NCBI GenBank assembly: GCA_964022095.1
Contig: CAXHZO010000012.1
Location: 14,424 to 78,423 of the forward strand
DNA from: an uncultured Arcobacteraceae bacterium
GTDB lineage: Bacteria > Campylobacterota > Campylobacteria > Campylobacterales > Arcobacteraceae
Reading direction: 5' to 3'
DNA length: 64,000 nucleotides
In this document: one piece after another, positions 2,325 through 56,705 of the stretch
Position numbering within the stretch: position 1 is the first letter of the stretch
Layout: each line of letters starts with the position of its first letter
Notes under the pieces: generated by a model
What the model was told of the DNA's origin: nothing
Seen by the model: only the letters and a program-made list of their open reading frames with translations
The model's database searches: none
Position numbers and translations under genes: made by a program

Positions 2325-4220
2325 ATGATTCAGATTACAGATAATCATATAGAAGAATTTGAAAATAGATTTGAAAACTTATCTTTTGATGCTGAAAGTA
2401 GAGCATTTATAAAATGTATAGAGTCAAAGGATATACAAGCTTGCCCAGGAGCCGGAAAAACTACTTCCTTAGTTGCTAAGCTAGATATTATTGCTTCACA
2501 AATGCCTTTTAAAGATAATAGTGGTGTTTTGGTGTTAACTCATACAAATGTTGCAGTTGATGAAATAAAAAAGAAATTAGGATTAAATGCAAAAATATTA
2601 CTTTCCTATCCGAATCATATTGGGACATTTCAATCTTTTGTCAATAAGTTTTTAGCGATACCTATGTATGTAAATATTTTTGGAAAAAAGCCTGAAAGAA
2701 TAGATTATGATTTATTTAATGAAAAACTATTACATAAACTCAATAAATATTATTTAAATAACTTTATACCTCAAAGTGCAGAAGCAAATAAGTATACGAG
2801 TTTAGAAGGTTTTATTAATGCCTTAACTGTAGAAGAAAATAGAATTAGTTTACCTCAGGCAGGAGGAAGAAGTAAAACTATCGTAAATAGAGGAAAGCCT
2901 TCTTTTAGAAATATTAAAAGAGCAAAAGATGAAAATATAATAAGGCAAGTTGTATCAGATGGCTATTTAGCTTATCATCATTGCTATGATTTAGCTAACA
3001 AATATTTGGATGACTATTCTAATATGAAAGAAGTTTTTCAAAAAAGATTTAAATATGTATTTATTGATGAAGTGCAAGATACTGATAATAATCAATTTGA
3101 AATCATAGATAAACTATTTTCAGGTAGTGATGTGATTATTCAAAAAATTGGTGACAAAAATCAAGAAATATTTTCAAATTTAAAAACACAAGCTAATGGT
3201 TGGGAAGTGGGAAGTGATGCTTTAGAAATAAAAAATACTAAAAGATTATCGTCTATTATATCTGAGAAAGTAAGTCATTTTGCAATTAATCCCCAAGAAT
3301 TAAATGGTAATAACGAAATACAGATTCAACCCAGAATACTACTATTTGATGAGAAAAATATTGGAGAATTAGTTCTTCAAAAATTTGGTGATTTAATTTT
3401 TGAAAATAATTTACAAGATTTGAGTAATTCAAAGTTTAAAGCAATTGGTGCAGTAGGTAAAGTCCATGAAAGTAAGATTACAATACCTGATTATTTTCCT
3501 TCTTTTAGTAAAAATGACAATAGGTCTTTAGAATATGAAACTTTAGTTGAAAAGATAGATTTGTTTGACAAAAAAAAGATACGAGTAAAAGACTACAGGA
3601 AAATTTTGCTAGATGTTATTATTGAGTATCTTAAAACTGAAGATATTAAATATAATGATAAATACTTTTCAAAAAATTTGTTATTGAACTATTTAAAAGA
3701 GAAAGATAAACTACAATACAAGCTTTTCAAGTTAAAGCTATTTGAAGGTGTTAAAAAACTTTCAATAAGTGAATGTGTGTTTGATATTCTAAAAGAAAAA
3801 GTAGAAATAGTATTAGAATTATTAGGAAGTAGTTTTAATGAATCTGTCTTAGTAAATATAATAAAAAACTACAAAATAGATTTATTACAAAAAACAACTC
3901 AAGATAAATATATTTATAGTAATTCAGATACTACATTTGATATTGAAATATCAACTATTCATAAAGTTAAAGGCGAAACACATACTGCAACATTAATACT
4001 TGAATCTTTTAATAGAACATATGATTTACAACAACTCTTAAAATTATTAAAAGGACTGTCATTAAGAACTAGTAATACGATTGATTTAAAAAAGAAATTA
4101 CTATATGTAGCTATGTCTCGACCCACACATTTATTGTGTTTTGCAATGAATAAAGAACATGTTAAAAGTAATGATATTAGTGAGCTTGAAGAGTGTGGAT
4201 TTATAATAGAGGAAATTTAA
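2325..4220 (+). CDS. gajB: UvrD/Rep-like SF1 helicase, GajB-like
   Basis: ACPGAGKTT, VLTHTN, FIDEVQD, GDKNQEIF, TIHKVKGET, LLYVAMSR; starts 1 bp after the OLD nuclease stop. Confidence 0.8.
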   Translation: MIQITDNHIEEFENRFENLSFDAESRAFIKCIESKDIQACPGAGKTTSLVAKLDIIASQMPFKDNSGVLVLTHTNVAVDEIKKKLGLNAKILLSYPNHIGTFQSFVNKFLAIPMYVNIFGKKPERIDYDLFNEKLLHKLNKYYLNNFIPQSAEANKYTSLEGFINALTVEENRISLPQAGGRSKTIVNRGKPSFRNIKRAKDENIIRQVVSDGYLAYHHCYDLANKYLDDYSNMKEVFQKRFKYVFIDEVQDTDNNQFEIIDKLFSGSDVIIQKIGDKNQEIFSNLKTQANGWEVGSDALEIKNTKRLSSIISEKVSHFAINPQELNGNNEIQIQPRILLFDEKNIGELVLQKFGDLIFENNLQDLSNSKFKAIGAVGKVHESKITIPDYFPSFSKNDNRSLEYETLVEKIDLFDKKKIRVKDYRKILLDVIIEYLKTEDIKYNDKYFSKNLLLNYLKEKDKLQYKLFKLKLFEGVKKLSISECVFDILKEKVEIVLELLGSSFNESVLVNIIKNYKIDLLQKTTQDKYIYSNSDTTFDIEISTIHKVKGETHTATLILESFNRTYDLQQLLKLLKGLSLRTSNTIDLKKKLLYVAMSRPTHLLCFAMNKEHVKSNDISELEECGFIIEEI

Positions 4221-36522: not shown

Positions 36523-36738
36523 ATGCCAATAATAAATGTAAAAATGACACATGAAGATGGTGGCGCTACAAAAGAGCAAAAAGAAGAGTTAGCAAAAGGT
36601 ATAACAGAGCTTTTTGCAAAAGTATTTAATGGTAGAGGGGCTAAAAGTGCAGTTGTAGTAATAGAAGAAATCTCAACTGATAATTATGCAATTGGTGGCG
36701 AAACTATTTCAAATATTAGAAAAAAAGTATCAAAGTAG
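36523..36738 (+). CDS. 4-oxalocrotonate tautomerase family protein
   Basis: Pro after initiator Met (MPIINVKM), TKEQKEEL, YAIGG. Confidence 0.9.
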   Translation: MPIINVKMTHEDGGATKEQKEELAKGITELFAKVFNGRGAKSAVVVIEEISTDNYAIGGETISNIRKKVSK

Positions 36739-36739
36739 T

Positions 36740-37369
36740 ATGTATTTAGAAAAGTTAAAAGATTTAGAATCAGAGTTTTTATATCAATATCCAGAAGGTT
36801 TTAAAGATGAACATTTTTTCCCTACAATGAAAAAATTTAAGCCTGAAAAACTTGAAGAGTTTGCAAAAGAGGCTTTAAAAAAAGAGAATTTTTCAAATCC
36901 AAACTTGATTGTTGAAGGCTTTTTTAAAACAGTTCAAAAATCAGTTATGGTTTCACTGTTTGATAAACTAAAATTAAAAGATGCCTTAGCTAGTTTAAAT
37001 TCATATGAAAAAGATATGTTAAGTATCGAAATATATGAACTTTTATATGGAAACCAAAAAGAGGGCTTTGAGGGCTTAGTTGAGTTTCTAGAACAATATA
37101 AATTAGCTAAATGGACTATTGTTAGTATAGTTCCTTATAGTATAAATAGACAGACACAATATTTTATAAAACCAACAACAACTAAAAATATAATCAAATA
37201 CTTGGAGTTAAAAGATGTTGTGTATAAACCAAAACCAACTTATGAGTTTTATAAAAATTACACAGGATATTTAGATGAGATGAAAAAAGAAGTAAGTGAT
37301 ACTTTAACTTTCGATAATGCAGCATTTACAGCATTTTTTAAAATTGCAATTGAAATGTGTGAGGTTTGA
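36740..37369 (+). CDS. Hypothetical protein; TGA stop completed by the inserted element
   Basis: ATG 36740 follows the tautomerase stop; TGA 37367-37369 spans the TSD/IR junction. Confidence 0.7.
   Translation: MYLEKLKDLESEFLYQYPEGFKDEHFFPTMKKFKPEKLEEFAKEALKKENFSNPNLIVEGFFKTVQKSVMVSLFDKLKLKDALASLNSYEKDMLSIEIYELLYGNQKEGFEGLVEFLEQYKLAKWTIVSIVPYSINRQTQYFIKPTTTKNIIKYLELKDVVYKPKPTYEFYKNYTGYLDEMKKEVSDTLTFDNAAFTAFFKIAIEMCEV
37360..37367 (+). repeat. 8-bp target site duplication, left copy (TGAGGTTT)
   Basis: Identical to 40912-40919; abuts the terminal IR. Confidence 0.9.
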
Positions 37370-37638
37370 GACTGTTCAGAGTTTTGTGTCAAAGTTTGAT
37401 AGTCCTAGAGTTTTAGTATAGTTAATCTTATTAATCCTAATTTGTGCCAAAACTTACAGTTTGTTGAACTTTCTATTTTAACTTAGAATCTTTTAAATTC
37501 TGAGTATGAATTTAAATTACCACTCCAAATAAATAATGGCTCTTGGGGTAGACCTTATTCTGAAAATTAGAGTTTTTTAATTATGGTTCTTGATGTTAAG
37601 TGATTCTGCTATAAAATCAAATTTGAAAAAGGAAAAAA

Positions 37639-38055
37639 ATGGAATTACCATCAATAAATTTATTCTCTTTTATTTTTAATTTAAAAAAAGAAAAACCAAA
37701 AAATGGATATTTTTTAGAATTTAATAAAAAAGGATCTGAAAATTCTAGACATCATATATTTAAAGAGAACAAAGTGATAGACTCAAGAATAGATTTAAAA
37801 AATATTTCTATGGGTGTTCTTTGGGGATACAATGGTGCTGGTCCAAGACAAGCTGCACTAGCAATACTAGCTGATTATAAGAATGATGAATTTGCCTTAA
37901 AACATTATGAGCAGTTTGCTATTGATGTTATCAATAAATTAAAACATGATAGAAATGATTTTTTGAAATTTACTACTATCCAAGATTGGATTGACAATGT
38001 TCATTTTACAGCTGATTATGCTGAATTAGAAGATGATAAAAGTGAGCAATGCTAA
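37639..38055 (+). CDS. DUF6166-like protein (cargo)
   Basis: WGYNGAGPRQAALAILADY...ALKHYEQFAIDVI; AAAGGA RBS. Confidence 0.6.
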   Translation: MELPSINLFSFIFNLKKEKPKNGYFLEFNKKGSENSRHHIFKENKVIDSRIDLKNISMGVLWGYNGAGPRQAALAILADYKNDEFALKHYEQFAIDVINKLKHDRNDFLKFTTIQDWIDNVHFTADYAELEDDKSEQC

Positions 38056-38213
38056 ATAAGTATTGGAAAGAAGGAATTCTGGGAAGGGTATTCATATTTA
38101 ATTACTTAGTCAATTTAGTAACGTGTCCTCGAAATTAAGTGTCTTAAAAATAATTAATCAAATATTTAAATAAATTATTATATTATTAAATAAATTATTT
38201 CTAGGAAATTTAT

Positions 38214-38969
38214 TTGAAAAATGCAAAAAATAGAATATCAAGAGCAGAAAGAAAATTTATAGAATTAAAAAAATTTATATTGAATAATCCCCCTTATATT
38301 TATACTTTTGAAGTTGACTTAAATAAAAAAGAATGTTGTACTTATGCAAAAGGTAATGAATCTAATATTGATGAAATTAAAATGGAAATTGGAGATTTAA
38401 TACATCAAATTAGAATTACTTTAGATAATGCATATTGGGATTGTGTTTCACCTTTTGTTAATGAAATTGAACATCGAAGTATTCAATTTCCAATTGGTAG
38501 AAGTAAAAGTGGTTATGAAAATAATCTTAAGAGTAGATTGGCTGCAAAAGTTAGTGATGATTTTTTTAATAAAATGAAAAGAATAAAAGCATATCCAGAT
38601 GAAGATGGAAATAAAATTTTATGTTTAATTAATGAACTTGATATAACAGATAAACATAAATTCCCTAATCCAATTATTGATTATACCACTGTATCAACTT
38701 CTCAATTAAAAGAACAAATCAATAATTTTCCTGAAAATATAAATATTGATAATATGATTATTAGTAATTGCCATAGACATATATGTTGGAGTATTAATAA
38801 TTACCAAATTACTAAAGAATTTATATCCATACCACCTACAACATTTCTATATGAAAAGGAATTAAATATAAATATTGGAATTAATATTAAAGATGGATTA
38901 CCATTATTAGAAACTTTACATAAAATGATTAATGAAGTAAAAAACACTATTTCAATATTATCTGAGTAG
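38214..38969 (+). CDS. Hypothetical protein, possibly HEPN-like (cargo)
   Basis: IGDLIHQIRITLDNAYW, IQFPI, LINELDITDKH; AGGA RBS before TTG. Confidence 0.55.
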   Translation: MKNAKNRISRAERKFIELKKFILNNPPYIYTFEVDLNKKECCTYAKGNESNIDEIKMEIGDLIHQIRITLDNAYWDCVSPFVNEIEHRSIQFPIGRSKSGYENNLKSRLAAKVSDDFFNKMKRIKAYPDEDGNKILCLINELDITDKHKFPNPIIDYTTVSTSQLKEQINNFPENINIDNMIISNCHRHICWSINNYQITKEFISIPPTTFLYEKELNINIGINIKDGLPLLETLHKMINEVKNTISILSE

Positions 38970-39024
38970 CATACTAGTATATATATGTTTGAAACAATAA
39001 AAAATATATTTAAAAGGAACTAAT

Positions 39025-39894
39025 ATGAAAAGAGGAATTGTAGCGACACCTGGAATTTTACATAAATTACCTCAGGGTATTCAAATGGAAAGAAGTTTAA
39101 ATTTTGATGAACTTAAATATTACATATTATATTTTAATAAAGTAGTGATTCCTTCTAATAATGGTTTATATATTGGGCTACCCAATGAGAAAGAGTTAAT
39201 CGAATCTAATCTTATTAAAAGACCAAACTATAATGTTTCAGGATTAATAGATTATGCATTATTAACAAAAATACAGACTACTGAATTAGAAAGATTACAA
39301 AAAATAAATGATAATACTTACTGGAATTTACATCAAATAGGTGGAGACTCAATTATTGCCTCTAATGAAGATCTTGTAAGAAAAGAAACAATAAAATTTA
39401 AGTTATTAAATGTTCTTCCAGTTCCTTCAGAAGATGTGAGTATTGATGAGCTTTCAATATTTAAAGAAAAGAGAAGTGACGAATTTAATTCACTACATGA
39501 AACAATTGATAATCTTTATCTTGATATATTAAAATCTCCGGATCAAGTATTCTCTGAAAGAAAAATAATAATTCAACTTCAGAATGATATTGGAAATATT
39601 CAAAAGGTTTCATCAGAGAAATGGAAAATCTTTAAAGGATATAGTTTGGATTATGACTTTACAATAGCTACTGAATTATCAACTTCAGGATTAATTGCAG
39701 GTGGTGGGGCAGGATATGTATTTGATCAAGCTCTTTTTGGTACGACATTTCCAATAGGTACAATTATAGGAGCAGCTGTTAAGGGTATTGATATTAAAGT
39801 ATTACCTAGCATGACATTAAAAAAAGAGACTCCAAACCACCAATTATCATATATATCGCATGGAATTAAGAATGGAATTATAAAGACTGTTTAA
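39025..39894 (+). CDS. DUF6236-like protein (cargo)
   Basis: YYILYFNKVVIP, LLNVLPVP...IDELSIFKEKRSDE; Gly-rich hydrophobic C-terminal stretch. Confidence 0.6.
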   Translation: MKRGIVATPGILHKLPQGIQMERSLNFDELKYYILYFNKVVIPSNNGLYIGLPNEKELIESNLIKRPNYNVSGLIDYALLTKIQTTELERLQKINDNTYWNLHQIGGDSIIASNEDLVRKETIKFKLLNVLPVPSEDVSIDELSIFKEKRSDEFNSLHETIDNLYLDILKSPDQVFSERKIIIQLQNDIGNIQKVSSEKWKIFKGYSLDYDFTIATELSTSGLIAGGGAGYVFDQALFGTTFPIGTIIGAAVKGIDIKVLPSMTLKKETPNHQLSYISHGIKNGIIKTV

Positions 39895-40307
39895 TTTAAA
39901 CTAAAGAGTCTGAATATCATTAAATCAAAAATGATAAAGGAATCTAGTTACGGTACTTAATAGAAAAGAGGAGTATATACTATATAGATATATTTCATTA
40001 CTCATAATACATGAATCTAATGACTAAAATCATGTCCAATTTTTTACTTAAAGGAATAAGAACAAAGAATATAGCTAGATATAAAAGCTTTTATTTCTTT
40101 ATTTTACAGTAATTAGAGAAAGGAATGTATTATCATAATAGACACGTATGTTAATCTTCCAAGTTACAGCAATTTCTTGATTCAATTTAATGTTCTAAAA
40201 CCACTAGTTTTTAGAACACAAACACTTATTAGTATTTTATGTTCAATAAAGTGTTCAAAATGCAAAAATCTTAATTCCCACAAAGCCTTAAGAGTTTTTG
40301 AATACTT

Positions 40308-40465
40308 TTAAAACAAACTCTTACACTCAACTTCCTGATCTCTTAGCTTATTTCCTTTGGTCTTAAGTCCAATAGTATTCTCATAGTAGGAACACCTCTC
40401 ATACTTCTTCTCTTTGTTAAGTAGGATCTTCCAGAAGCCACTAGGAACAGATATCTTATTTCTTC
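40308..40465 (-). pseudogene. C-terminal fragment of a DNA/RNA non-specific endonuclease
   Basis: IGRNKISVPSGFWKIL...ERCSYYEN...EVECKSLF*; its 5' part is replaced by the transposase remnant. Confidence 0.55.
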
Positions 40466-40862
40466 CTATGCAAATGGATAAATTGACTCTAATGGTCTTT
40501 GTTTCCATTCTTTGAGTAATGGTATAACCTTATCTGTAAAATCACTTATTGTTGCTTTTGAAAATTTCATACCAAATTTTTCAATGTGTTCAGCTATTTG
40601 GCTATAACTATTACCTAAAGCATATAAAGATAAAATCTTTTGTTCTATATGATCTGACATATGGGTTTGGTGTTTTTTAACAATATGAGGTTCGTAAGAT
40701 CCCCTTCCTGTCTCTTGGAACTTCTAACTCAATTCACCAACACTACTTTTCATAGTTTTTAAAGATTTACCATTCTTTCTATTTTTATTTATCTCAGAAG
40801 TTAGATGAGATTTTAACTCTGCTTCTAATGCAGCTTTAATTCATTCAAGTGCATCTGTTCAA
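40466..40862 (-). pseudogene. IS256-family transposase, N-terminal remnant
   Basis: AALEAELKSHL...NRKNGKSLKTMKSSVGE / ELEVPRDRKG / SYEPHIVKKHQ...IEQKILSLYALGNSY...TDKVIPLLKEWKQRPLESIYPF, with frameshifts; DDE domain absent. Confidence 0.88.
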
Positions 40863-40911
40863 TCCTTTAGAATAAATTATATAAGACTGACACAAAATTT
40901 CTAACACTCCC

Positions 40912-40919
40912 TGAGGTTT
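40912..40919 (+). repeat. 8-bp target site duplication, right copy (TGAGGTTT)
   Basis: Identical to 37360-37367. Confidence 0.9.
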
Positions 40920-42273
40920 AGTTTTTACACTCCTTACATACTTTTGCAAACTCTTTTATAGCTTGTATTATTTCATCTTCTTTAAATCCACCAAATCCCA
41001 TAGCATATAAATCATCTTTTCTATTATATATTTTTATATTTACTTTTTGAGTTTCTTTTAAAAGTAATTCTTTATTAATATTACTATTTAATTTTATAAG
41101 GATATTTAAGCCACTTCCTTCTCTTATGATTTCCATTTCATCTTTTAACTCTTTTTTTAAAGACTCTTTCATTAGATTGTGTTTTTTTCTATTTAGAGTT
41201 CTTACTTTTCTTATATGTTTGATAAAATACTCTTCTTTTAAAAATAGCTCTAATGTTTTTTGTATATCAATAGAAATACCTGAAAATGGATAGTCAAAAC
41301 ACTCTTTGTATTTTGAAATTAAGCTTTTTGGTAATATTAAGTATCCCACTCTTAGAGCTGGAGAAAATGATTTTGAGACAGTTCCAAAATATATTACTCT
41401 ATCATTATTGTTTATTCCTTGAAGGGCAGGAATTGGTTTGTTGTAATAACTTAATTCACTATCATAGTCATCTTCTATTATATAGCTATTTGTTTTTTGT
41501 GCCCATTGAAGGATTTTTATTCTATTTGCTATTGGTATTGTAACACCAGTTATATATTGATGTGCAGGAGTTAGATATATTAGTTTTGATTTGATTTTTT
41601 CAAGGTCATTTAAATCTATTCCTTGTTTTGTCATTGAAAGGTACTTTATATCATAAGACATTTGTGTAAATACTTTTTTTGCAACCCTATAAATATCCCC
41701 TTCAATAGCAATACTACTTGTAAAGTCTTTTAATAATAAAGAAACAATAAACATTGCATCTGAAAAACCACTACAAAGAACTATTTGATCTTCACTACAA
41801 TTAACTCCCCTTGAAGACCTTAAATATTTTTTTAACTCAATTCTTAATGATTCTAATCCTTGTGTATTTACATATGAGCCAAAATCAATATCTTCTTTTA
41901 ATACTTTGTTATAAACTTTATTCCATGCTTTTATAGGAAAAGTATCGCTACTTAGTTTTGCTGGATAAAAATCATATTTATATTTTTTAGTACTTGTATT
42001 TTTGTTTTGTTCATCAATAGGTTTAGTTAAGTCTTGATATAAATCTTCACTTACATAATAACCTTTTTGAGCAATACTATCTATGTACCCTTCTGCATAT
42101 AGTTGATTATAAGCATTTTGTACAGTATTTTTACTAAGATTATATTCATTTGCTAAAGTTCTAATAGAAGGTAGTTTTTCTCCAGCTTTTCTTGTGCCAT
42201 CTTTTATTCTTTCTTTTATTTGTTCATACAATTGAATATAAAGTGGTATGTCAGATTTTATAAATTTATACAT
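40918..42273 (-). CDS. MocR/GabR-family PLP-dependent transcriptional regulator
   Basis: GntR HTH PLYIQLY...LPSIRTLA...SKNTV; IIEDDYDSE; SKSFSPALRVGY; likely start ATG 42273 rather than 42315. Confidence 0.9.
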   Translation of the reverse strand: MYKFIKSDIPLYIQLYEQIKERIKDGTRKAGEKLPSIRTLANEYNLSKNTVQNAYNQLYAEGYIDSIAQKGYYVSEDLYQDLTKPIDEQNKNTSTKKYKYDFYPAKLSSDTFPIKAWNKVYNKVLKEDIDFGSYVNTQGLESLRIELKKYLRSSRGVNCSEDQIVLCSGFSDAMFIVSLLLKDFTSSIAIEGDIYRVAKKVFTQMSYDIKYLSMTKQGIDLNDLEKIKSKLIYLTPAHQYITGVTIPIANRIKILQWAQKTNSYIIEDDYDSELSYYNKPIPALQGINNNDRVIYFGTVSKSFSPALRVGYLILPKSLISKYKECFDYPFSGISIDIQKTLELFLKEEYFIKHIRKVRTLNRKKHNLMKESLKKELKDEMEIIREGSGLNILIKLNSNINKELLLKETQKVNIKIYNRKDDLYAMGFGGFKEDEIIQAIKEFAKVCKECKN

Positions 42274-42324
42274 AACTGTCCCTATAAAAAATTTATTTTT
42301 TGTATCTTGTGGCAAGTACAGTTT
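42274..42324. promoter_or_regulatory. Candidate MocR operator
   Basis: Inverted AACTGT (42274-42279) / ACAGTT (42318-42323) with internal TGTATC, between divergent genes. Confidence 0.35.
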
Positions 42325-49909: not shown

Positions 49910-49973
49910 CTATAAAATGATACTTTTAAATAAAAAAAACTACTAAAAACTAACAAAAATCTTAAAAAATAAG

Positions 49974-50010
49974 AAAATGATACTATTTTTATACTCTTTC
50001 TCTATATAAT
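49974..50010 (+). promoter_or_regulatory. Promoter with tandem ATACT box (copy 1)
   Basis: AAAATGATACT-attttt-ATACT-ctttctcta-TATAAT upstream of the FIST gene; extra AAAATGATACT at 49914-49924. Confidence 0.7.
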
Positions 50011-56555: not shown

Positions 56556-56592
56556 ATTATAGCATTAAAAAGTATAAAAAAAGTATCATTTT
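56556..56592 (-). promoter_or_regulatory. Promoter with tandem ATACT box (copy 3), probably leaderless
   Basis: Minus strand AAAATGATACT-tttttt-ATACT-ttttaatgc-TATAAT, then 5 nt to the ATG. Confidence 0.7.
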
Positions 56593-56705
56593 TTAAAAAA
56601 TAACAATTATATGGCCTTAAAATTATAATTAAATTCCTTTGCTAGTATTGATTTTATTGATATTTTTAATAAATTATTTTAATTAAATAACCACTTAAAT
56701 AATAA

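Follow-up and report, generated by a model that had tools for sequence, protein, structure and literature searches.

An IS256-family element with passenger genes, probably the decayed relic of a cargo-carrying lineage in Arcobacteraceae

IS256-family elements are usually treated as bare insertion sequences (IS), which act on genes only by inserting nearby or by forming composite transposons. A locus in the 64,000-nucleotide stretch of Arcobacteraceae DNA analyzed here (hereafter, the window) raises the question of whether about 3.5 kbp of DNA between two convergent genes, including a ruined transposase gene and three apparently intact genes, is a single inserted unit of this family and, if so, what kind of element it once was. 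Based on direct reading of the sequence and a script, we delimited a unit of 3544 bp (37368–40911) with 24-bp ends, bracketed by an exact 8-bp target-site duplication (TSD), TGAGGTTT, at 37360–37367 and 40912–40919. The termini and neighbors are as follows.

36686..37369, + strand: left flanking gene, 227 aa, no Pfam family; homologues in 111 of 184 family genomes
37360..37367: left TSD copy, TGAGGTTT (sequence read and script)
37368..37391, + strand: distal terminal inverted repeat (called IRL in the earlier note on this DNA), 24/24 identical to the distal ends of seven related elements
37368..37472, + strand: conserved 'type-B' left arm, about 105 bp, 80–85% shared with elements bearing other cargo
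40888..40911, - strand: proximal (transposase-side) terminal inverted repeat (IRR of that note), 24/24 identical to the ends of both same-genome siblings and of four copies in genome G001
40912..40919: right TSD copy, TGAGGTTT (sequence read and script)
40918..42315, - strand: right flanking gene, MocR/PdxR-like regulator, 465 aa (family match)

The distal (left) end reads GAGACTGTTCAGAGTTTTGTGTCA and the proximal (right) end, as its reverse complement, GGGAGTGTTAGAAATTTTGTGTCA; they match at 18 of 24 positions, and all six mismatches fall within the first 14. An insertion that duplicated 8 bp would have kept both neighboring reading frames intact; the TGA stop codon of the left gene consists of the last T of the duplication and the first GA of the element, and that of the right gene takes in the last two duplication bases. 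These properties are those of the IS256 family, i.e., imperfect inverted repeats of about 24–30 bp with a conserved subterminal part (here, the inner 10 bp) and TSDs of 8–9 bp. The family is described as transposing by copy-out/paste-in, with 8-bp duplications and bipartite ends whose first 14 bp are variable, and the ends of ISCth4 show the same mismatch pattern as the window element (PMC7780238).

Taken alone, this geometry is not significant, because such pairs arise by chance in the AT-rich window. When an exact 8-bp direct repeat was sought around an inverted repeat of at least 18/24 (spacing 0.6–10 kb), 11 pairs were found in 20 first-order Markov shuffles of the window and two in the real one, the second of which is not a transposon but a shared upstream motif. 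These counts, and flanking genes that are not neighbors in the other species checked, speak for two unrelated leftover ends around a coincidental repeat, with no single inserted unit. We nevertheless regard coincidence as extremely unlikely. What makes the geometry significant is that each 24-mer exactly matches an end of sibling elements and that the right end lies at the family's usual distance before the transposase gene. The two ends are also correctly oriented to each other, each abuts one copy of the octamer, and, with the ends fixed, an 8/8 flank match would occur by chance at about 6e-5 given the base composition of the window (our arithmetic). The same end-to-duplication geometry recurs in 18 other elements of the lineage, each with a different perfect 8-mer.

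A tblastn search of the genome identified exactly three transposase loci, namely that of the window element and those of two siblings with the same ends, each within its own 8-bp duplication. One sibling (2863 bp) carries ArsR and an ArsP_1 permease, and its transposase gene has a nonsense codon at 362. The other (2066 bp) carries a LysE exporter and an intact 400-aa transposase of the IS256 family (NF033543, above cut-off, E=1.7e-123); its distal end differs from that of the window element at 4/24 positions. The earlier note had proposed a hidden 3.5-kb IS256-derived unit with intact ends and a TSD, to be checked by searching the genome for these repeats and a full IS256 transposase and by looking for the same ends around other cargo. 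The unit was recovered with ends identical to those of sibling elements, and both searches returned such elements, the second also among the lineage described below.

A third proposed check, an empty site with a single TGAGGTTT, gave no such allele among 184 family genomes, in the contigs of four runs, or in the JGI metagenome contigs. The exact left-flank 24-mer had no match in the JGI contigs, and no joint skipping 37368–40919 occurred in the four runs, of which X4 held the same element at the same site, X6 the left junction, and X7 and X8 the cargo block only. The left gene shows 74% DNA identity and a different downstream neighbor in the only other genome of the genus, and a PdxR-like gene lies within 1.5 kb of it at 0 of 29 loci of other species. 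The absence of an empty site is uninformative here, because one genome per species was searched and synteny of the two flanking genes is not kept in other species; the whole case for insertion accordingly lies in the duplication and the family-typical ends.

Decay of the transposase gene is evident on the proximal side of the element.

40182..40307: diverged copy of a conserved non-coding segment (alignment to intact type-B elements)
40308..40469, - strand: 3' fragment of a gene for a DNA/RNA non-specific endonuclease, matching the end of a 231-aa ORF in genome G096 at 90% identity
40469..40855, - strand: dead IS256-family transposase gene, codons up to 159 only (PF00872, E=1.9e-12)

The transposase remnant, put at about 400 bp in the earlier note and about 440 bp in our analysis, aligns to residues 36–159 of the 400-aa sibling transposase with 78% identity. 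It bears a 24-bp deletion that took the start codon, a 63-bp deletion, and small frame-breaking indels, and it is cut after codon 159, directly before the region of the first catalytic Asp in the intact siblings. The remaining part would hold only the dimerization and DNA-binding domains, judging by domain analogy, not alignment, with ISCth4 (residues 1–165 for these domains, first catalytic residue D175). The endonuclease fragment occupies the place of codons 160–400. In intact type-B elements, the conserved non-coding segment sits just 3' of the transposase stop codon; its diverged copy is still present in the window element, showing that a whole transposase gene once stood there. This segment of about 170 nt folds into two hairpins, with variation too low to show covariation, and an Rfam scan of 37200–41100 at E<=1 gave no matches. 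Transposase truncations recur in the lineage with no shared breakpoint (breaks after residues 159, 156, 219, and 141).

Given these features, the region 37368–40911 is probably what remains of an IS256-family cargo carrier (a transporter IS) that was formerly autonomous and decayed after insertion. The ancestor would have comprised, in order, a distal end, a short arm, passenger genes, the conserved non-coding segment, the transposase gene, and a proximal end, and would have entered between the two convergent genes by the copy-out/paste-in route of its family. The start codon and codons 160–400 would have been lost afterwards, with the endonuclease scrap taking the place of the latter. Because neither end differs from those of working relatives, the element would now be a non-autonomous cassette resembling a mobile insertion cassette (MIC), one that the only intact transposase among its siblings in the genome might in principle mobilize.

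Mobilization in trans had been one of two routes offered in the earlier note, and the sibling transposase makes it possible. That the unit reached its site in the present transposase-less form, as a MIC mobilized by that enzyme, is a different matter and seems to us unlikely. Elements that have intact transposases and fresh duplications share both of its ends exactly, and the lineage contains further defective derivatives whose ends are intact and whose duplications are perfect (2210 bp in G011, 3038 bp in G090, and 10,003 bp in G044). The cargo block is also nearly identical in organisms of other habitats, so at least the cargo has spread recently. Against this, the cargo copies elsewhere have different arms, and the window element is single-copy in its genome. 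The 2210-bp derivative, the only other defective one checked, is likewise single-copy, with no other transposase-gene match in its genome. The diagnostic junction between the endonuclease scrap and transposase codon 159 was absent from every other genome among the 184 searched and was not seen in the contigs of the four runs.

The interior is a mosaic, comprising an IS3-end scrap and three intact ORFs, all on the + strand; the earlier note had already seen three intact-looking cargo genes.

37474..37527, - strand: IS3-family element end remnant, 54 bp, terminus at 37527; multi-copy in relatives and metagenomes
37639..38055, + strand: cargo gene 1, DUF6166 protein, 138 aa (family match)
38214..38969, + strand: cargo gene 2, 251-aa protein, no family (cluster search)
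39025..39894, + strand: cargo gene 3, DUF6236 protein, 289 aa (family match and structure model)

Cargo gene 1 occurs at 92–97% identity in other contexts, including Aliarcobacter and Arcobacter plasmids. Cargo gene 2 is an orphan, with its own cluster and only three distant ones (35–36% identity) among 5.8 billion cluster representatives; Foldseek with its model returned nothing below E=1, and the HEPN rows were not significant. The DUF6236 protein combines a Rossmann-like domain at its N terminus with a C-terminal stretch that is hydrophobic and rich in glycine, and we weighed it as a Cam1-like CARF membrane effector (CARF sensor fold plus membrane segment). The model (mean pLDDT 67.5) gave Csm6 as its best Foldseek match (E=1.1e-3, TM 0.26), and VIA left PIN, CARF (Cam1 Z 5.7), and other Rossmann-like folds tied at Z 5–6.4. 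Among the three cargo proteins, DUF6166 alone drew a PADLOC row, a weak one to PD-Lambda-5_A (E=0.015); NCBIfam had no match for any of them, and a protein atlas feature search gave only unnamed clusters.

The cargo block is 98–99% identical to copies in other contexts, even though the element arms reach only about 80–85% with any other copy. A metagenome contig (L143) carries the same cargo at 97.9%, followed by the canonical non-coding segment and a C-terminal transposase remnant; it has no distal end left of element position ~83, so that no progenitor both complete and intact was seen with this cargo. The identity levels suggest that the present cargo may postdate the insertion, and the three-gene block was probably exchanged by recombination via repeats at its borders. 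In that case, the earlier statement that the 3.5-kb unit moved as one piece would be wrong in detail: a single IS256-type unit with a true duplication stands, but its present content need not be what moved.

To place the relic, we compared it with its relatives in Arcobacteraceae genomes and contigs, where 25 elements, including the window element, were resolved with both ends. They range from 2021 to 10,003 bp, none is a plain IS, and 19 have perfect 8-bp TSDs, two have TSDs matching at 7/8 or 6/8, and four have none. Wherever the transposase gene is intact, the passenger genes are bounded by its stop codon on one side and by the distal end on the other. In a locus survey (45 of 79 resolved), all six close relatives carry cargo, and 37 of 39 distant ones are 1294–1520 bp long. 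A tree of eight cargo-bearing and 13 plain transposases groups the cargo-bearing ones in one clade (97/95), sister to a plain 1301-bp Sulfurovum element. The compact, transposase-only form typical of IS256 (about 1.2–1.5 kb) is thus confined to more distant relatives. The 2863-bp ArsR-ArsP form is present in several genomes, from more than one genus, at sites that differ, and is 98–99.5% identical over its full length, showing that the end-cargo-transposase-end layout transposes as such.

The cargo of the relatives is diverse, including RND efflux pumps, EptA-type phosphoethanolamine transferase, ArsR/ArsP, LysE exporters, two-component systems, c-di-GMP enzymes, an E2/ThiF/JAB protein, AbiEii, and Fic. 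Unrelated cargo is found in a pair of elements whose transposase and arms agree at 99.6%, and one orthologous insertion contains 1.7 kb in one species but 7.3 kb in a second; comparisons of this kind suggest that cargo turns over in the slot faster than the transposase diverges. The slot is edged by the conserved distal arm of 55–105 bp and, in one sub-group, by the segment of about 170 bp, rich in hairpins, that follows the transposase stop codon, with an imperfect direct repeat of about 19 nt at its borders. It is possible, if doubtful, that this undescribed monophyletic lineage is a gene shuttle with a fixed cargo slot, and in the boldest form of this idea a dedicated recombination site at the borders would act alongside nested IS copies and general homologous recombination, turning the lineage into an IS-borne cassette platform.

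The single-unit layout also bears on the second route offered in the earlier note, a composite transposon with two IS copies around captured DNA, later collapsed to one remnant and a solo end. The bare left arm, which contains no transposase sequence, and another left arm standing alone on this contig (G000:C12:1908-2012) would fit such a history. However, two IS copies bracketing the cargo are not present in the window element, which has one transposase remnant and, on the left, the ordinary 105-bp distal end of the family. The intact relatives are single units with one transposase gene, the full-length 2863-bp form is found unchanged in layout at different sites, and no inner end was seen beside the transposase stop codon in the conserved segment (alignment inspected by eye only). 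With no trace of such a collapse, we consider this origin very unlikely.

Several known systems resemble the relic and its relatives. Mobile insertion cassettes, for example the IS231-associated MIC231 elements of Bacillus cereus, share with it known IS ends around passengers without a working transposase and a cognate transposase elsewhere in the genome. The term MIC is used in PMC3129680. Unlike these, the window element keeps about 440 bp of dead transposase gene and is single-copy; it looks like a decayed transporter IS, not a propagating cassette. In ISEcp1/ISCR-type units (one-ended capture), a single IS likewise moves genes downstream of its transposase gene, but the far end here is no surrogate; it is an authentic conserved end with a shared arm and many different cargos. 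The element agrees with IS256-family members (IS256, ISCth4) in its Mutator-type DDE transposase (about 400 aa when intact; NF033543, PF00872) and 8-bp duplications. It differs from them in that the window copy has no working transposase, and in that the nearest plain relatives measure 1.29–1.34 kb whereas all 25 resolved members of the close group, the window element included, span 2.0–10 kb with passenger DNA.

Transporter IS (tIS; ISfinder/TnCentral, IS1595 and IS66) provide the nearest match, with IS-like ends, a single transposase gene, unrelated passenger genes inside, and, as the 2863-bp form demonstrates, transposition of the whole unit. The transposase is of another family here, and the window copy has lost its autonomy; a functional transposase together with passengers inside the ends is found in siblings, e.g., the 2066-bp element. 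A 2021 preprint confines tIS to the IS1595 and IS66 families. A literature search outside ISfinder found no account of transporter IS in the IS256 family, and none of the present Arcobacteraceae elements.

Taken alone, the window copy is no more than an ordinary relic in decay; its value lies in leading to the lineage, an entire IS256-family clade whose members each bear genes within one unit. Annotation probably records these units merely as 'transposase plus hypothetical genes'; a related plasmid copy is annotated for its transposase only, which suggests that the earlier note was right in expecting ORF-based annotation to miss them. The lineage is a natural system for asking how a compact IS becomes a cargo carrier, and it suggests a path for gene flow within Arcobacteraceae. 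Wastewater metagenome runs also contained the cargo of the window element, and Arcobacter plasmids of chicken-meat origin carried part of it.

An exact octamer flanks the 3544-bp element on both sides, and directly inside its two copies lie 24-bp ends that match each other at 18/24 positions, with all six mismatches confined to the first 14. The ends and the duplication described in the earlier note were thus read in the sequence where it had placed them, and its dead transposase and three intact cargo genes correspond to a PF00872 piece and three intact ORFs.

Features of the element (element coordinate + 37367 = window coordinate).
37360-37367 and 40912-40919: target-site duplication TGAGGTTT, exact in both copies
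37368-37391: left (distal) end GAGACTGTTCAGAGTTTTGTGTCA, directly inside the left octamer
40888-40911: right end, reverse complement of GGGAGTGTTAGAAATTTTGTGTCA, directly inside the right octamer
Element 1-105: type-B left arm, common to elements with other cargo at 80-85% identity
Element 107-160: 54-bp terminus of an IS3-family element; a complete IS3 copy, nested in one of the elements of G001 (the one other genome of the genus), ends in sequence 83% identical to it
Element 161 to ~2815: three cargo genes and their spacers
37639-38055, + strand: DUF6166 ORF (Pfam, E=7e-17)
38214-38969, + strand: orphan ORF, no family
39025-39894, + strand: DUF6236 ORF (Pfam, E=2.6e-26)
Element ~2815-2940 (window 40182-40307): diverged copy, with a 32-bp gap, of the segment that follows the transposase stop codon in intact relatives
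Element 2941-3102: 3' end of a putative non-specific endonuclease gene; in the related genome G096, a 231-aa ORF has an end 90% identical to it; a weak PF01223 match is the sole family evidence
Element 3102-3470, - strand: transposase remnant (PF00872), codons 159 back to 36, 78% protein identity to the sibling

The insertion site is the gap between two convergent genes. The TGA stop of the left gene is formed by the last T of the duplication and the first GA of the element, and the stop codon of the right neighbor, a PdxR-like gene (NF052282, E=2.9e-126), takes the last two bases of the other octamer copy; because the stop codons are formed at these junctions, both flanking frames survived the insertion.

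When the window was scanned for exact 8-bp direct repeats flanking an inverted repeat of at least 18/24 (spacing 0.6-10 kb), two such pairs were found, compared to a total of 11 in 20 first-order Markov shuffles, and the geometry of the repeats alone is therefore no proof beyond chance. The element is secure because each 24-mer is identical to the ends of a family of elements: that of the right end has perfect matches at two more sites in the same genome and at four sites in G001, and that of the left end is found unchanged in several relatives. Once the ends are taken as given, the probability that all 8 flanking positions match by chance is ~6e-5 at this base composition (our own arithmetic). 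The second pair (49964/56595) consists of a 24-bp motif matching at 22/24 as an inverted pair (window 49964-49995 and 56571-56602), each copy adjoining AAAAAATA. It was set aside as a transposon and appears to be a shared operator, given that the genome has no other copy of the motif and that the two copies precede the first genes of a pair of convergent two-component operons, whose products are FIST, histidine-kinase and response-regulator proteins.

The genome (31 contigs, 2.57 Mb, 28% G+C) holds two further elements with these ends, each with its own duplication.

Sibling elements in the same genome.
Sibling 1, contig C3:147544-150406, 2863 bp: duplication TTAATAGA; ArsR regulator and ArsP_1 permease
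Sibling 2, end of C3 and start of C10 (55-nt overlap), 2066 bp: duplication TCCTCTTA; LysE-type exporter

The earlier note had proposed searching the genome for these ends together with a full IS256 transposase, and such a gene exists in sibling 2, where it is intact (400 aa; NF033543 IS256 family, E=1.7e-123); the transposase gene of sibling 1 has a nonsense codon at position 362. Since tblastn located exactly three transposase loci in the genome, there is a single intact transposase gene. Outside the window, on the same contig (C12:1908-2012), a solo type-B left arm, 89% identical to the arm of locus L049 and with three mismatches in the 24-mer, adjoins a 294-aa and a 284-aa ORF; no partner end was found between this arm and the contig start.

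The relatives that bear these elements are Arcobacteraceae. Ends were paired with duplications at loci of three sources (genus, family, GTDB genome collection), which yielded 25 elements with both ends resolved, including the window copy, with perfect 8-bp duplications in 19, near-perfect ones in two (7/8 and 6/8), and none in four. Their lengths range from 2021 to 10003 bp, and not one of the 25 is a plain IS. In one survey, which resolved 45 of 79 loci, all six close relatives carry cargo; 37 of the 39 distant relatives (transposase 56-84% identical) measure 1294-1520 bp, and in these 37 the transposase gene is followed by just 34-251 bp. Among plain elements, the closest is a Sulfurovum copy of 1301 bp whose ends are nearly the same. 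A phylogeny was built from 21 transposases that are intact or nearly so, 8 of them cargo-bearing and 13 plain, excluding near-duplicates of the 2863-bp form, frameshifted copies, and most plain loci. The cargo-bearing transposases group together in a single clade (support 97/95), and its sister is the Sulfurovum element.

Where the transposase is intact, cargo is found in the stretch from its stop codon to the distal arm. This is the sole position in a compact IS at which extra DNA would spare both the gene and the ends. The earlier note had also suggested looking for the same ends with other cargo, and such elements were found: Pfam assignments for 68 ORFs of these elements define at least 16 cargo sets.

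Cargo sets of the lineage.
Transport-related: ArsR-ArsP; LysE; LysE with PhzF; RND efflux systems
Signaling: sensor kinases and response regulators; GGDEF/EAL proteins
Enzymes: EptA-type transferase with diacylglycerol kinase and sulfatase; pterin and riboflavin-type enzymes
Other: an EF-hand protein; cytochrome b561 with HupE; serine recombinase; AbiEii; Fic; an E2/ThiF/JAB protein

The last of these, a 708-aa protein joining prokaryotic E2, ThiF, and JAB domains, is carried by an element in genome G035 (L124, 1106-3229); this domain set is familiar from ubiquitin-like conjugation defense operons. The 2863-bp ArsR-ArsP form is 98-99.5% identical end to end in the window's genome, G001, G094, and G096, with further copies in two other contigs, and the duplication differs in each copy (loci including L017, L047, L048, L050, and L135). 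Near-identical copies, each with a different duplication, show that the layout moves as a single unit and that its spread is recent. Variants include a G001 copy with a 26-bp insertion and a G011 derivative with a 653-bp internal deletion.

The window copy is a decayed mosaic. In its transposase remnant the start codon is lost through a 24-bp deletion; the other lesions are deletions of 63 bp and 3 bp and a +1/-1 indel pair. The last 56 bp of the element are 96% identical to intact elements. The surviving piece is upstream of the region of the sibling's first catalytic Asp; by analogy with ISCth4, in which residues 1-165 form the dimerization and DNA-binding domains and D175 is the first catalytic residue (PMC7780238, in part), the remnant may correspond to the N-terminal domains. 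In intact type-B elements, the post-stop segment spans ~170 bp directly after the transposase stop codon and contains two long hairpins with 12-bp stems (e.g., L010:2580-2774 and L031:2580-2774). Since a piece of this segment survives in the window copy, a complete transposase gene was once present, which favors decay of an autonomous element over a unit built without a transposase. A Sulfurimonas aquatica plasmid also carries a 74.6% match to the post-stop segment, adjoining a transposase gene of the IS256 family. An autonomous, cargo-carrying ancestor would have inserted via the copy-out/paste-in route, which is established for IS256 and ISCth4 (PMC7780238, in part), and would then have decayed in place while its content was remodeled by recombination.

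Contigs of two wastewater runs cover window 37455-40205 alone at ~99% identity, with unlike sequence beyond both sides. Similarly, L143, a metagenome contig from JGI, is 97.9% identical to window 37491-40221 and then runs into a post-stop segment of canonical form and the degenerate C-terminus of a transposase (residues 346-398); to the left of element position ~83 it has no likeness to the distal end. In 100-nt bins of the element, identity to L143 is 45% in the first bin, 94-100% over 201-2800, 77% in 2801-2900, and at most 54% beyond, and the arms of the window copy are only ~80-85% identical to any other copy. The near-identical shared block and the diverged arms indicate that the cargo is young and shared, whereas the arms are old and private. 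The IS256-type ends, duplication, and cargo unit of the earlier note hold, but its interpretation is supported only in part, as the present content may not be what moved. Judging from these alignments, the cargo block was probably exchanged by recombination via border repeats (the IS3 scrap and the post-stop segment). Inspection by eye also showed imperfect direct repeats of ~19 nt, matching at 14/19 positions, at both borders of the cargo slot.

The IS3 origin of element 107-160 explains its multi-copy state in relatives and its great depth in metagenome runs. Together with the DUF6166 gene downstream of it, this IS3 scrap recurs at 92-97% identity in other contexts, for instance on Arcobacter plasmids from chicken meat and on a plasmid of Aliarcobacter faecis, where a HipA-like ORF (named by eye) is the neighbor. 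These differing neighborhoods make DUF6166 an independent accessory gene, untied to the other two cargo genes. Its neighbors, named by eye from translations, are a HipA-like ORF and an XRE-type regulator in L026 (a G013 plasmid contig) and a 342-aa ORF resembling DUF4238 in L027 (G036).

Rapid cargo turnover was found elsewhere in the lineage. The elements of G033 and G157 share 99.6% nucleotide identity in transposase and arms and carry unrelated cargo. In G150 (L129, 332-2381) and G152 (L130, 318-7992), two species of one genus, the insertions have 98% identical flanks, the same octamer (one copy with one change), and 96-98% identical arms, and therefore represent one orthologous insertion. 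Their interiors (1671 bp vs 7297 bp) are unrelated, the larger encoding an EptA-type transferase, a diacylglycerol kinase, a sulfatase, a different IS256-family transposase, and a two-component pair; content can thus change in place without new transposition. Two G001 elements (L018, 3128-11989; L019) contain an IS3-family copy that cuts the transposase gene, and IS4-like and IS1182-like copies within a sensor kinase gene. By offering homology that moves with them, such nested IS copies could help new cargo to enter.

By its ends and its predicted mechanism the element belongs to the IS256 family, but it differs from the compact, transposase-only form typical of that family. Intact members of the lineage fit the transporter IS (tIS) of ISfinder/TnCentral, a notion defined for the IS1595 and IS66 families; structurally, the window copy corresponds to a mobile insertion cassette, a term used in PMC3129680 (in part). 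In the portion of the literature searched, ISfinder excepted, we found no description of an IS256-family tIS or of these Arcobacteraceae elements, and a named member may exist. The window copy is now probably a non-autonomous cassette that the intact transposase of sibling 2 might still move, the distal end of that sibling differing at 4/24 positions; no second copy of the defective unit was found in its own genome, 184 genomes, or four metagenome runs, and the other defective derivative checked, that of G011, is single-copy too. The window element itself is an ordinary decaying relic, and its value lies in the lineage of cargo-carrying IS256-family elements revealed through it.

PADLOC and NCBIfam contributed nothing on the function of the cargo proteins. 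Among 5.8 billion cluster representatives, homologs of the orphan fall into its own cluster and three distant ones (35-36% identity, one Pseudoalteromonas), and a structure search with its model (pLDDT 62.7) gave no match. The DUF6236 model (pLDDT 67.5) has a predicted Rossmann-like N-terminal domain, for which PIN, CARF (including Cam1), and other folds score alike (Z 5-6.4), below the level that exceeds a common arrangement, and a glycine-rich hydrophobic stretch at the C-terminus that is modeled with low confidence. As a lead only, this predicted architecture suggests that DUF6236 may be a sensor-plus-membrane defense effector.
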